Source: a virus (Duplodnaviria; Caudoviricetes). Taken from it: a stretch of 64,000 bases of DNA. The stretch is from the IMG/VR virus record IMGVR_UViG_3300025018_000093; one strand, 5' to 3'. The translations under genes were made by a program, and so were the position numbers. Shown here piece after piece: positions 32,661 through 55,823 of this stretch; within the stretch, counting starts at the first letter, position 1; each line of letters starts with the position of its first letter. The notes under the pieces are model-generated. The model did no database searches. It worked only from the letters and a program-made list of their open reading frames with translations, and had not been told where the DNA came from.

Positions 32661-33416
32661 ATGAGCTATCTAACACCCAATTCTGAGCTGAAAGGGATAC
32701 GGGACTCTCTGAAGGCTACGGTCCGGGTTGCCACAACAGGAAATATCAACCTGGGCAGCACCTTGACGACTATCGACATGGTGTCCTTGGTGGACAAAGA
32801 CCGAGTCCTGATCAAGGACCAGAGCACTCCCTCCCAGAACGGTATCTATGTGTGGTCTAGCATCACGAGCATGCTTTCACGTGCCCGTGATGCTCTGGAA
32901 CTCTTTGACGGTCTGCTGGTGACAGTGACTGAGGGACTTGTCCATGCCGATACTGCCTGGAACCTCATCACGAACAACCCCATCACTGTAGGTGTAACAG
33001 GGTTGGAGTTTGTGAAGCAGGGTGGAGGGACGATTGTCCCACTAGTGGTGGCGAACAACGAGTCCGTGGATGGTGTGGTGTCCACATTGGCGCTGGGTGC
33101 CTTTGCTTTCAACCCTGCAGAGTACGGGGGCAGCTCTACTTTCGAGTTTGAGGTAGTGCTAAGCGCCAGCACGGGTACGTTAACTGCGACGGCTTTGTTG
33201 TACAACCTAACCGATGCGGAGGACGTGACCGGGGCAACACTCACCACATCGAGCACGACACCTGTGAAGCAAAACTCTGGGTCGCTCACAGTAGGAACTG
33301 CTGCCGGGAACCTGAAGAGCACAGAGAAGATTTATGAGGTGCAGATCATGAACAGTGGGACTTTGAACACGGACCAGACCTATCTTGGCATTGCCGTGCT
33401 GAGGGTCCTCGGGTAA
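32661..33416 (+). CDS. Tail-fibre/virion-associated protein
   Basis: KATVRVATTGNINL...DRVLIKDQSTPSQNGIYV is a common phage fibre N-terminal module; beta-rich C-terminus. Confidence 0.65.
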   Translation: MSYLTPNSELKGIRDSLKATVRVATTGNINLGSTLTTIDMVSLVDKDRVLIKDQSTPSQNGIYVWSSITSMLSRARDALELFDGLLVTVTEGLVHADTAWNLITNNPITVGVTGLEFVKQGGGTIVPLVVANNESVDGVVSTLALGAFAFNPAEYGGSSTFEFEVVLSASTGTLTATALLYNLTDAEDVTGATLTTSSTTPVKQNSGSLTVGTAAGNLKSTEKIYEVQIMNSGTLNTDQTYLGIAVLRVLG

Positions 33417-46714: not shown

Positions 46715-46949
46715 CATTGAATCTGTGGAGTCCTCTTCGGTTCTACCACACCAGAAAATCCAGAGTGCGTTTGCCGAGGGGTGGAGTGCGGAGCTTTCCA
46801 CCGATGACATCGGGAAACTCCTCTTCAGATTGGGGATCTGCCTGGGAACCGTGATCGCGGAACTCACGAAGAGGGGTGTGCACTGGGAAGTCATTGACCG
46901 TAACATCAAGAAAGCGACTCTTCGAGGTGTGGATCAGAGCTGGGGGTGA
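46707..46949 (+). CDS. Hypothetical protein
   Basis: 80 aa, overlaps neighbours. Confidence 0.55.
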   Translation: MSDIESVESSSVLPHQKIQSAFAEGWSAELSTDDIGKLLFRLGICLGTVIAELTKRGVHWEVIDRNIKKATLRGVDQSWG

Positions 46950-47257
46950 CAATGGCTCCGCAATCCAAACTCCCCTTCCGGTGTTGGCATTGCTGGGCTC
47001 GGTTCTCCTGGCACGTCCCGCCTAGTGACCGCTACTGTCCTCGCTGTGATCGTGTGGGCCTGTTCCTAGACAAGGATCGGCTAAAGCGCAACAAGAGTTA
47101 CCGAAAGGACCTCCTGTGCCACTGTGATGGGTATTGGTTTCCGCACAGGAAGGGATCCCTGCAATGCCGGGAGGGAGCGAACTATGCGGGGATGCAGCAG
47201 GAACCGGAAGTCGTCAAGGACTATGTCGACCCAGAGGATGATGACTTACCCTTCTGA
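46946..47257 (+). CDS. Small Cys/His-rich Zn-finger protein
   Basis: CWHC..CPRC..CHC...H...C. Confidence 0.6.
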   Translation: MTMAPQSKLPFRCWHCWARFSWHVPPSDRYCPRCDRVGLFLDKDRLKRNKSYRKDLLCHCDGYWFPHRKGSLQCREGANYAGMQQEPEVVKDYVDPEDDDLPF

Positions 47258-47499
47258 GGCAGATCGGGTGCGAAAAGCAGGACAGTTTCGCTCAAAGCTG
47301 CGTAGAATAGTGGGATGGGTTCGAGTGCTCCAGTGGTGGAGCAAACCCTGGGGAGCGCTCGAACCCAACAGTTTCAGGGGGTTTGACACGCAAAAAGTTC
47401 GTTGGAGAGCGTGGAACTCCTCTGTGTCCTGCCCTGAAATGGGACCGCTCGAAAAGCAGTGCCCAAGTGGTCGTAACTCTTTGGAATCTGAATAGCACT
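47258..47499 (+). promoter_or_regulatory. Putative CRISPR leader
   Basis: 242-bp non-coding segment upstream of repeat 1, with TTGACA at 47382-47387 and inverted repeats. Confidence 0.5.
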
Positions 47500-47780
47500 C
47501 TTTCCCAGTCTTCTAAGACTGGGCACCGTTGAAACTCTCCTTCGGGTTGCGCACCCTCTGTATTGGTGCGGCTTTCCCAGTCTTCTAAGACTGGGCACCG
47601 TTGAAACGCGACTACCTGTCGGCCTTGGGCACACCCCTCGGGTGCTTTCCCAGTCTTCTAAGACTGGGCACCGTTGAAAGAAACAAACAAACAAACAAAC
47701 AAACAAACCGGCGATCTTGGCTCGGATGGCCTTGATACGCAGTCCTTTCCCAGTCTTCTAAGACTGGGCACCGTTGAAAC
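47500..47780 (+). CRISPR. Orphan mini CRISPR array: 4 repeats of 36 bp (CTTTCCCAGTCTTCTAAGACTGGGCACCGTTGAAAC), 3 spacers
   Basis: Repeats at 47500, 47572, 47645 (last base G) and 47745; 8-bp stem CCCAGTCT/AGACTGGG; 3' TTGAAAC; spacers of 36, 37 and 64 bp (36 + (AAAC)7); no cas gene in the window. Confidence 0.93.
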
Positions 47781-47804
47781 AAAGAAACAAAAGGGAGAAC
47801 AGAT

Positions 47805-48917
47805 ATGTCCAATACACAAGAGCTAGCACAGAAAGTCGAGGCCGCAAGGGCGGCATACTACAACGCGACCCCCCTCATGTCGGATGCGGGGTTTGATGCT
47901 CTGGAAGAGGAGCTGCGAAAACTCGATCCCGACCACTGGCTGCTCAAGGTAGTGGGGGCTCCCCCTGGAGACGCAGGCTGGCCCAAGGTGAGACACTCCA
48001 TTCCGATGGGTAGCTTGAACAAGGCGCAAGTTTACCAGGAGATGGCGAAATGGTCGCAAGCCCTCGGCAACCAGGAGCTGTTCCTGACTGAAAAACTCGA
48101 TGGCATAAGCGTCAGTTTGCGGTACTTGGACGGTCATTTCCGTCAAGCCATCACCCGAGGGGATGGTCTCATTGGGGAGGACATCACCCGCAATGTCTCC
48201 CTGATGAAGGGCGTCGTTCCAACTCTCGGTAAGAGCCCGTTCGATCCCTTCAAAGAGTGGTCCGGTCACCTGCGTGGGGAGATTGTTTGTTTCAAGTCGG
48301 ACCACGTCAAGTACTTTCCCGGGGAGTCCAATCCTCGAAATACCGCGAGCGGAACGGCCAAGCGACAAGCAAACCCCGAGAAATGTCAACACTTGACGGT
48401 GCTGGTGTATCAGGTGCTCCCAGACTCGGGGACACTTCCGACAACCAAGCAAGAGGAGCTGGCTCTCGCACGTGCGATGGGGTTCACCACTCCGCACCAT
48501 GCGATTTGTCCAGACTTGACGAGGGTGGAGAACATCTACCAGCGATATGTGGCCACCGCTCGTGAGAAGCTCGACTACGACATTGACGGGCTGGTCCTGG
48601 AAGTCAACTCTGTTTCCAAGGCAGAAGACCTGGGTCTTCTCAATGGTAGGCCCAAGGGTGCCATCGCGTACAAGTTCCCGCACGACCAGAAAGAGACCAT
48701 CCTGGTGGATGTCATCTGGCAAGTTGGAAACTCTGGCAGGATCACCCCAGTGGCTGTTTTCGAGCCTGTGGACCTGGCTGGCGCCAAGGTAACCCGAGCG
48801 TCCCTCCACAACGTCAAACGGTTCAACGAACTTCAACTCACACGCGGCTGCCGCATCCTGGTTTCACGCCGGAACGACGTGATCCCGGCTGTGGAAGCGA
48901 ACCTGTCAATCTCATAG
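47805..48917 (+). CDS. ligA: NAD-dependent DNA ligase, N-terminal subunit (adenylation + OB fold)
   Basis: AYY...SDAGFD.L, PMGSL, EKLDG, TRGDG..GEDIT, RGE, DIDGLV, AYKF, WQVGNSGRITPVA, LHN. Confidence 0.95.
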   Translation: MSNTQELAQKVEAARAAYYNATPLMSDAGFDALEEELRKLDPDHWLLKVVGAPPGDAGWPKVRHSIPMGSLNKAQVYQEMAKWSQALGNQELFLTEKLDGISVSLRYLDGHFRQAITRGDGLIGEDITRNVSLMKGVVPTLGKSPFDPFKEWSGHLRGEIVCFKSDHVKYFPGESNPRNTASGTAKRQANPEKCQHLTVLVYQVLPDSGTLPTTKQEELALARAMGFTTPHHAICPDLTRVENIYQRYVATAREKLDYDIDGLVLEVNSVSKAEDLGLLNGRPKGAIAYKFPHDQKETILVDVIWQVGNSGRITPVAVFEPVDLAGAKVTRASLHNVKRFNELQLTRGCRILVSRRNDVIPAVEANLSIS

Positions 48918-48926
48918 GGGATTTTC

Positions 48927-49760
48927 ATGTCAACTAACATCCTGACCATGTTTGGGCCACCGAAGCCCAAAGACCCCCCGCTGCAAGTCCCCACGCATTG
49001 CCCTGAGTGTAGCTTTCCCACTCGGATGGATGGGGAGTACCTGATTTGCGTTAACACGCAGAGATGCCCCGCTCAGATTGCAGGGTCCATCAAGACCTGG
49101 ATTCAGAAGCTCAACGTTTTGGACTGGGGCGACAGTCTCATTGAAGCGCTTTGCAGTGCGGGCTTGATCGCCACCATTGAGGACTTGTACCGGCTCAGGG
49201 AAGAGGATATTGCATCCCTACTGTTGTCTGGTCGCCGGGTGGGGGACAGCACAGCCAAGAGAGTTTTGGAGAATCTCCACGCGAAGAAAGAGCTGCCGCT
49301 GGCATCCCTGGTGGGAGCCCTGGGCATCTCGATGGTTGCTCGGTCGATGACCAAGACCATCACCTTGGCTGGATTTGACACCCTAGACAAGATGTCCTCC
49401 GCGACGGTGGACGACATTGCAGCCATTCCGGGTGTGGGACAGGCAAAAGCTGCGAGCTTCGTGCAGGGTATCCAGGAAAGGATGAACTTGATACGTGCTC
49501 TGCTGGCAGCCGGGGTTCGAGTCAAGGCCCTCAGTGACGGACCTCTGAATGGGAAGCGTGTCTGCATGACAGGATTTCGGGATGCCGAAATGGCTGACGC
49601 TATCGAGGAAGCAGGCGGTATCGTGAAAAGTGGTGTGTCGAAGGATTTGGACTTCCTTGTGGCCGCAGACCCAACAACCAGCACAAGTGGGAAAGCTCAG
49701 AAGGCTCGCCAATATGGCATTACGATCATCAGCCAAGAGCAGCTGTGGGATATGCTTTGA
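48927..49760 (+). CDS. NAD-dependent DNA ligase, C-terminal subunit (Zn finger, HhH, BRCT)
   Basis: PTHCPEC..C.N...C, HhH repeats (IPGVGQAKA), BRCT GKRVCMTG..GVSKDLDFLV..SGKAQKARQYGI. Confidence 0.92.
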   Translation: MSTNILTMFGPPKPKDPPLQVPTHCPECSFPTRMDGEYLICVNTQRCPAQIAGSIKTWIQKLNVLDWGDSLIEALCSAGLIATIEDLYRLREEDIASLLLSGRRVGDSTAKRVLENLHAKKELPLASLVGALGISMVARSMTKTITLAGFDTLDKMSSATVDDIAAIPGVGQAKAASFVQGIQERMNLIRALLAAGVRVKALSDGPLNGKRVCMTGFRDAEMADAIEEAGGIVKSGVSKDLDFLVAADPTTSTSGKAQKARQYGITIISQEQLWDML

Positions 49761-55280: not shown

Positions 55281-55823
55281 CTAGAGCCACCCAATTTTTG
55301 CTAGTACAGGTTTGACGCCAAAGTGCAGACGATAGCTCTTTGTCTCTTTGCGCCGCACCCAGGCCCAGTCTACGTTCTCCCAGTTCAACCTTGGTCTCCA
55401 TTTTTCCGGGACGCTTTCATCGACCTGCGCGATGAGGGTTGTGTACTGGAATCCTCCATCCTTGAAGACGAACTTCCCCACGATGCGATACGGTGGGACA
55501 CTCCCAAGTTCTTCCAGGGCCTCTCGGTGAGCAGCAACCTTGGGGTCTTCCCCCTTTTCGACGGCGCCTCCCACTACTCCCCAGGTGTTGGGCTCGTTTA
55601 CATGTGGCGACCTGTGCATCAGCAGCACACGAGTGGGTGTGCGGAGGAGGAGCCCAGCCCCTTCCTGCCCCCAGTACACCCTCTCGTCGTCATCTTCGAA
55701 GTCATCTTCGTCGAGGTCACCCTCGTCGAAGTCCTCCTGAAGGTCTTCGGTTCCCAAGGGGAGCTTGTGCTGCATGGCGTATCTTCGCAAGATGCGAAGG
55801 GTCATTTGATGATTCATGGCCAT
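55281..55823 (-). CDS. NUDIX hydrolase
   Basis: Nudix box GGAVEKGEDPKVAAHREALEELG. Confidence 0.92.
   Translation of the reverse strand: MAMNHQMTLRILRRYAMQHKLPLGTEDLQEDFDEGDLDEDDFEDDDERVYWGQEGAGLLLRTPTRVLLMHRSPHVNEPNTWGVVGGAVEKGEDPKVAAHREALEELGSVPPYRIVGKFVFKDGGFQYTTLIAQVDESVPEKWRPRLNWENVDWAWVRRKETKSYRLHFGVKPVLAKIGWL

Follow-up and report, generated by a model that had tools for sequence, protein, structure and literature searches.

A genuine class 1 CRISPR array is carried by the large phage whose DNA was analysed here, and the genes adjoining a second copy of its repeat and leader place it in type I-G. The array lies in the last 64 kb (the whole stretch that was analysed, henceforth the window) of a 261,416-bp contig from an uncultured huge aquifer phage with about 55% GC, and the window encodes a DNA polymerase, intein-bearing helicases, a PARP, an ADP-ribosylglycohydrolase and a CCA-type enzyme. 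A 20-mer of the repeat led to one metagenome contig, Ga0210043_1000312 (the same as ENA k141_224098; 52,151 bp; hereafter locus B), in which the same repeat and a near-identical leader of about 240 nt directly follow the stop codon of a cas8g gene. On balance we favour the explanation that the element is a genuine and probably active satellite array of type I-G, for which Cas proteins of the same phage lineage act in trans, and that a type I-G system circulates in this lineage of huge aquifer phages. No tRNA genes were detected in the 64-kb window, despite its gene for a CCA-type tRNA repair enzyme, and searches for close relatives of the phage, by megablast against GenBank phages and through a ligase-based locus search in IMG/VR, returned nothing. 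The features of the array and its surroundings are as follows:

47262..47499, + strand: CRISPR leader, 238 nt (blastn and alignment against locus B, L001; homology starts exactly at 47262)
47279..47308, + strand: sigma-70-like promoter, AGGACA, 18-nt spacer, TAGAAT (promoter scan; identical in locus B)
47316..47367, + strand: 16-bp leader hairpin just 3' of the predicted transcription start (inverted repeat I7, 94% complementary; identical in locus B)
47500..47535, + strand: repeat 1 (36 nt), with hairpin at 47504-47523 and a predicted Csb2 cut between 47527 and 47528 giving an 8-nt handle, GTTGAAAC
47536..47571, + strand: spacer 1 (36 nt), unique; 24-mer without IMG/VR match
47572..47607, + strand: repeat 2 (exact-copy search)
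47608..47644, + strand: spacer 2 (37 nt), unique; without IMG/VR match
47645..47680, + strand: repeat 3, last base G
47681..47708, + strand: (AAAC)7 microsatellite separating repeat 3 from spacer 3 (8 copies with period 4 in Tandem Repeats Finder)
47709..47744, + strand: unique part of spacer 3 (36 nt); without IMG/VR match
47745..47780, + strand: repeat 4, perfect (exact-copy search)
47781..47804, + strand: A-rich trailer with a GGGAG ribosome-binding site, running directly into the ligase start codon
47805..48917, + strand: N-terminal half (adenylation and OB) of a split NAD-dependent DNA ligase (Pfam PF01653, PF03120)

The 35-nt repeat core, CTTTCCCAGTCTTCTAAGACTGGGCACCGTTGAAA, occurs in four exact copies on the + strand, starting at 47500, 47572, 47645 and 47745, with no further copy within the 64-kb window and none in 100 shuffles. 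The full repeat is 36 nt long and ends in G in repeat 3 and in C in the other three. Positions 5-24 of each copy fold as a hairpin with a stem of 8 bp and a loop of 4 nt (-12.6 kcal/mol, z -3.1); 3' of the stem, which ends at position 24, come CACC and then GTTGAAAC, the end of the repeat. The spacers measure 36, 37 and 64 nt, the third being a composite of (AAAC)7 and an ordinary unique spacer of 36 nt, and all three are unique in the window and in all loci compared. In general, an array is recognised as CRISPR when at least three nearly identical direct repeats of 23-50 nt alternate with unique spacers that are similar in size; here there are four repeats of 36 nt with unique spacers of 36, 37 and 36 nt, plus the 28-nt insert. 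The preliminary description had counted four repeats and three spacers and had pointed out a Cas6-type hairpin and a 3' handle, all of which hold, the third spacer now being resolved into its two parts; its reverse-strand reading of spacer 3 as LRIKAIRAKIA is likewise correct. The array is identical in two independent assemblies, including the same (AAAC) count in the ENA assembly. No Rfam family, those for CRISPR repeats included, was matched at its gathering score, and the matches with E up to 1 were all to microRNAs and ascribed to chance. An intrinsic terminator or a set of tandem promoters was rejected as the identity of the element, there being no T-run on either strand and the cas adjacency deciding the matter, and a 7-nt leader-repeat complementarity, considered as tracrRNA-like pairing, was dropped as chance, as type I systems need no tracrRNA.

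The distal unit departs from this regularity. The (AAAC)7 tract continues the AAAC at the 3' end of repeat 3, the final G of repeat 3 is the same as in the degenerate last repeat of locus B (...GTAGAAAG), and the 12 nt after repeat 3 resemble the 12 nt after repeat 4 (family D1, 94% identical over 50 nt). Based on this microsatellite extension, the D1 likeness and the terminal-type G, the distal unit looks like the product of a later duplication or recombination.

The array sits between a 103-aa ORF ending at 47257 and the ligase gene starting at 47805, all on the + strand, and its last repeat ends 24 nt 5' of the ligase ATG. The leader promoter is the sole promoter-like site within 46900-48000, no terminator-like site was found between it and the ligase gene, and the arrangement suggests that the ligase is probably co-transcribed with the array. 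The RNA spanning 47312-47499 folds at -74 kcal/mol (z -3.2; none of 200 shuffles folds as well), and the 16-bp hairpin forms part of this minimum-free-energy fold. A long-range helix pairing about 47369-47390 with 47470-47492 was also observed in the leader, which has no Rfam match. Such structure is unusual among CRISPR leaders and could be a regulatory or stabilising element. The five substitutions seen between the leaders of the window and locus B all fall within 47399-47432, a weakly paired middle stretch, so that these differences provide no evidence of covariation.

The second half of the ligase (HhH and BRCT) occupies 48927-49760, and a TAG stop codon and a GGGGA ribosome-binding site lie between the two halves in the same frame. 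Homologs of about 360-390 aa and of full length (about 630-650 aa) are both frequent, which indicates that a split ligase is widespread among these phages. The closest ligase relative (90% identical in amino acids) has no repeat in the 157 nt 5' of its ligase, implying that the cassette is a lineage-specific insertion. As the homology with locus B begins right at the cas8g stop codon, the cassette was most likely copied from a cas-adjacent array.

In locus B the operon upstream of the leader has the order cas7g-csb2-cas3g-cas8g. Its Cas8g1/Csx17 protein matches TIGR04113 with 219 bits (NCBIfam cutoff 150), its Cas3g matches TIGR02621 with 595 bits (cutoff 400) and its Csb2 matches TIGR02165 with 89 bits (cutoff 45), while its Cas7g matches Pfam PF09617 (Cas_GSU0053) and scores 27 bits with TIGR02570, under the cutoff of 38. 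Since the genes upstream of this leader score above the NCBIfam type I-G cutoffs, we assign the array to type I-G, a subtype that had been left open when the repeat was first described as class 1-like. The locus B array consists of four copies of the window repeat, the last degenerate, with spacers of 39, 35 and 10 nt that are unlike those of the window. The type I-G Csb2 protein, in a manner unusual among Cas6 enzymes, cuts a 36-nt repeat 4 nt 3' of the hairpin and leaves an 8-nt handle (PMC9638904), and the geometry of the window repeat (36 nt in all, with stem, 4 nt and 8 nt) equals this published cut pattern. No Cas1, Cas2 or Cas4 Pfam family is on record for the genes called across the 52 kb of locus B, and none of the three was found in the window.

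Tiling of locus B over its 52 kb uncovered genes for a Ro60 protein, a HAD_SAK_2 protein, thymidylate synthase (ThyA), DHFR, dCMP deaminase, topoisomerase IB and an HNH nuclease, many small ORFs without a Pfam family, and 16 tRNA genes found by ARAGORN, with one more tRNA match in Rfam. The tetranucleotide correlation with the window is 0.92-0.95 for locus B, compared with 0.94-0.95 within the window itself, 0.88-0.91 for the related phage C described below and 0.2-0.6 for bacterial loci. By this signature and by its gene content, locus B is identified as huge-phage DNA of the window phage's lineage and not as host chromosome. The tRNA genes form a cluster (L017 4411-14313 and 20483-20556) with small ORFs in between; the Ro60 (TROVE) gene is a few kb away and the type I-G operon about 10-20 kb. 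Locus B encodes, on the minus strand of L031 (737-1516), a 259-aa homolog of a 251-aa protein of unknown function encoded at 32661-33416 of the window; local segments of the two are 38-54% identical, and this pair is the sole protein-level match between both contigs, apart from a methyltransferase fragment.

Among the best 120 matches, the nearest relative of the locus B Cas3g is 43% identical and lies on a 17,972-bp Logan contig (L033), here termed phage C, where an operon of the same four genes is found along with the beginning of an array. Its Cas8g1/Csx17 matches TIGR04113 with 251 bits and its Cas7g matches TIGR02570 with 63 bits; signature proteins of type I-G are accordingly present in locus B and in phage C, and not in the window. 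In the repeat of phage C, the stem (8 bp) and the loop (4 nt) keep their length and position, and the flanks CTTTCC (5') and CCGTTGAAAC (3') are common to it and to the repeat of the window and locus B. Between these two distinct repeat sequences, on which the covariation rests, five of the eight pairs are changed on both sides, which points to compensatory change that has maintained the hairpin. Near the first repeat, the phage C leader likewise retains the motif GCGCTCGAAA...TTCTTTG..TGAATA. A NUDIX protein of phage C is 62% identical to the one in the window (55281-55823), and no Cas1, Cas2 or Cas4 family is on record in 14.6 kb of its 17,972-bp contig. In phage C (observed in L033 1-7100), the operon is a few kb away from genes for the NUDIX protein, a large protein resembling C39 peptidases, an HU-like protein and an SNF2-type helicase of 1497 aa; genes of these kinds are also found in the window phage genome, in another order.

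No Cas family was found among the window ORFs tested, a six-frame comparison of the window with the locus B operon matched in the leader and array only, and a 7-kb portion of locus B showed nothing else that matches the window; the preliminary description had likewise seen no cas gene in the 64 kb. No Cas homolog of at least 90% identity occurs on the 261,416-bp contig, and none of the best 120 Cas3g homologs lies on it. In clusters of at least 90% identity, all four Cas proteins reach the 52,151-bp contig at most, whereas the ligase cluster reaches 261,416 bp. Whether the window phage has cas genes of its own depends on whether locus B is an unassembled part of its genome or belongs to a sibling phage in the same cells, and we regard these two possibilities as roughly even. 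The 261-kb contig ends at a repeat, by coordinate conversion within 14 nt of the end of a 130,348-bp contig in the independent assembly ERZ27293386, which also contains locus B; this shared break point suggests that the contig may be incomplete and is probably not closed. Both loci are present in the same aquifer runs, at depths of 43 versus 53-63, 2.7 versus 3.5 and about 3-5 versus about 4 in three runs. Relatives of Ro60 up to 82% identical are found on other contigs, with none of the best 120 Ro60 homologs on the 261-kb contig, and the gene contents of locus B and this contig look complementary. The shared break point, the like composition, the tracking depths and the complementary gene content thus speak for one genome. 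Conversely, the depth gap of about 25% in the deepest run (43 versus 53) and the record of small locus B proteins in 6-7 contigs, as against 3 for two genes beside the window array, argue against a single molecule. The two-genome side further draws on the search from the terminal genes of locus B, which found no bridging contig, and on the comparison of locus B with the last 3 kb of the window, which showed no end overlap. One end of locus B is extended by contig L021, which crosses a region rich in iterons before reaching genes with no relation to the window. This region (L021 6200-7640; also L020 1-400) comprises about 1.4 kb of non-coding sequence with several families of short tandem iterons (units such as CCCTCAAGTAC, GGCAAGGCCCTG and GCTGCCGCGCAGCGGCTAGGCTCAGG), at which the assemblies break; it may act as replication origin of the cas-bearing phage, or else as its packaging or terminus region.

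The window, locus B, L021 and L033 gave no protospacer for spacers 1-3, the best ungapped identity of 23/36 being at chance level; the spacer 24-mers have no match in IMG/VR, and GenBank phages gave one 25-nt chance match only, the search covering this limited set of databases. The array may target competing phages or host genes, as the preliminary description inferred, but no protospacer from these databases bears this out. The impression by eye that no spacer matches within the window agrees with this result. Of the checks proposed with the preliminary description, the repeat search delivered the subtype and no host identity, and the spacer search delivered neither a protospacer nor a PAM.

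Based on these observations we infer a route by which the array could be transcribed, processed and used. Among the sequencing runs listed as containing this stretch there is no RNA run. Transcription would start at the leader promoter (47279-47308) and run through the structured leader and the four repeats, probably on into the ligase genes. Csb2, a Cas5-Cas6 fusion acting in trans, would bind each 8-bp repeat hairpin and cut 4 nt downstream, with cuts predicted after 47527, 47599, 47672 and 47772. The expected products are two normal crRNAs of 72 and 73 nt, each with the handle GUUGAAAC, a guide of 36-37 nt and a 28-nt 3' hairpin tag, along with an aberrant third crRNA of 100 nt whose guide would start with (AAAC)7, and the last cut would give a ligase mRNA beginning 32 nt 5' of its ATG. 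Bound by Cas7g and Cas8g, the crRNAs would then direct Cas3g to DNA that matches their guides. All these Cas proteins would most likely be supplied by the locus B operon, which has the same repeat and a near-identical leader, and the cassette would be a copy of an array beside cas genes, placed in the gap 5' of the ligase. Several findings count against this explanation: the 28-nt microsatellite disrupts the third unit; the searches found cas genes neither in the window nor, as close homologs, on the 261-kb contig; no protospacer was found, and hence neither a target nor a PAM; and neither locus has Cas1, Cas2 or Cas4 on record, which leaves the origin of the spacers unaccounted for.

Cas-less compact arrays in huge phages are usually read as borrowers of host Cas proteins. 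The preliminary description followed this reading in suggesting that the array borrows the Cascade of its host, and in its fullest form a type I-G Cascade of the bacterial host would process and use the crRNAs, and host Cas1-Cas2-Cas4 would add spacers. The lack of cas genes in the window and of close Cas homologs on the 261-kb contig is what it would predict, and an adaptation module of the host, acting on the intact leader, would explain how spacers came to differ between two phage loci that both lack adaptation genes. It also has precedents in archaeal viruses (PMC6858448) and in huge phages (PMC7162821). However, the sole matching cas operon found is on the phage-like 52-kb contig from the same aquifer samples, and the repeat search recovered no representative genome with the repeat: a 31-mer had no match in 185,579 representative genomes, and an 18-mer gave 10 single matches in unrelated bacteria, about the number estimated by chance, of which the one examined (L003) is not an array. 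Furthermore, in run X1 the leader depth of 95 is close to the sum of 43 and 53 for the two phage loci, and the repeat unitig depth of 348 agrees with the approximately 324-355 expected from about 7 copies in these two loci, so that the two phage loci account for the repeat in this run. There is no other abundant carrier of the repeat in run X1, with which a rare host is compatible. The nearest outside Cas3g (43% identical) has a phage-like context, and bacterial ones are about 40% identical or less among the best 120 matches. We accordingly regard dependence on the host as quite unlikely. Different in kind is the possibility that the window phage has no cas genes at all and that its copied leader and array load its own guides onto the Cascade-Cas3 of a sibling phage, represented by locus B, in co-infected cells. 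This Cas piracy is conceivable but unlikely; if true, it would mean that a cas-less phage steers or blunts the weapon of a rival, the array being a free-riding parasite of a phage-borne CRISPR system.

The array might instead do little or nothing with its spacers. As an inert hitch-hiker it would be a recent recombination copy of leader and array that is decaying and serves at most as a promoter for the ligase genes. Its tiny size, the terminal-repeat-like change and microsatellite expansion at repeat 3, the resemblance of the segment after repeat 3 to a duplicated trailer (family D1) and the lineage-specific insertion suggested by the closest relative (90% identical ligase, no repeat in the 157 nt upstream) would all fit such a copy. 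Yet none of the four repeats deviates within the 35-nt core, the promoter and the leader stems are intact, the five substitutions are all confined to one weakly paired stretch, and two independent assemblies agree on the array; we thus consider an inert copy unlikely. A decoy comparable to RNA anti-CRISPRs, with repeats that would sponge Csb2 and Cas7g of a type I-G system of a competitor or the host and with merely incidental spacers, appears very unlikely. Cas-less repeat mimics are known phage anti-CRISPRs that often lie just 3' of a promoter (PMC10651486), the repeat is identical to that of the cas-bearing and possibly competing locus B, and one unit is aberrant through its (AAAC)7 insert. 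Nevertheless, those RNA anti-CRISPRs (Racrs) are solitary repeat units, whereas here a 240-nt leader is followed by four perfect repeats and three canonical spacers of type I-G size; moreover, no acr-like gene context was identified and no spacer matches locus B. The reading we favour remains that of an active satellite array served by Cas proteins of its own phage lineage. An exact search of IMG/VR with the repeat gave no match, and the family-level pattern of CTTTCC, 20 free bases and CCGTTGAAAC gave 23 single matches there, none with a hairpin and all ascribed to chance.

Comparable arrays have been described in several systems. Huge phages carry compact arrays (median six repeats) in which adaptation genes are missing and some of which are without interference genes nearby, as stated in part of the report by Al-Shayeb et al. 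2020 (PMC7162821). The window array is like these in coming from an environmental huge phage, in its small size and in the lack of Cas1, Cas2 and Cas4. It is unlike the cases in that part of the report in that the matching interference operon is on another phage-like contig of the same samples and not in a host, in that its subtype is I-G where an I-C variant, types II and V and Cas-phi are described, and in having the complete leader of a cas-adjacent copy. The mini-arrays of the Sulfolobales viruses SPV1 and SPV2 (Medvedeva et al. 2019, PMC6858448) are similarly intergenic, with a promoter-bearing leader, few spacers, no adjacent cas genes and spacers that differ between relatives; however, their repeat and leader match host arrays and their spacers target the sibling virus, whereas here the matching locus is phage-borne and no host match or target was found. 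The type I-G system (formerly I-U) of Thioalkalivibrio sulfidiphilus (PMC9638904) shares with the phage loci the proteins Cas7g, Csb2, Cas3g and Cas8g, the 36-nt repeat, and the hairpin followed by 4 nt and an 8-nt 5' handle. The phage version differs from it in having no cas1, cas2 or cas4 on record and in its divergence, the Cas3g being at most 43% identical to any other protein among the best 120 found and the locus B Cas7g scoring 27 against a cutoff of 38 bits, and the window holds the RNA part only. With the Racrs or solitary repeat units of Camara-Wilpert et al. 2023 (PMC10651486) the window array shares the phage-borne repeat mimic, the lack of cas genes and the position 3' of a promoter, but in place of a solitary repeat it has a complete array, with leader and canonical spacers.

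The array thus belongs to the known kind of compact huge-phage arrays, and what is particular to it is its subtype I-G, a divergent and adaptation-less phage operon, and the presence elsewhere of a second array with a full leader. Its repeat and whole leader trace to a phage-borne type I-G interference operon without spacer-acquisition genes. The case illustrates that a phage lineage can maintain a CRISPR repeat family of its own, with a hairpin that covaries, and spread arrays to second sites or genomes. The operon adds a very divergent type I-G effector, its Cas3g being no more than 43% identical to the other proteins found (best 120). Together, the four Cas genes and the two arrays offer a concrete and testable pair for the acquisition of spacers without adaptation genes and for the sharing or theft of arrays between co-infecting phages.
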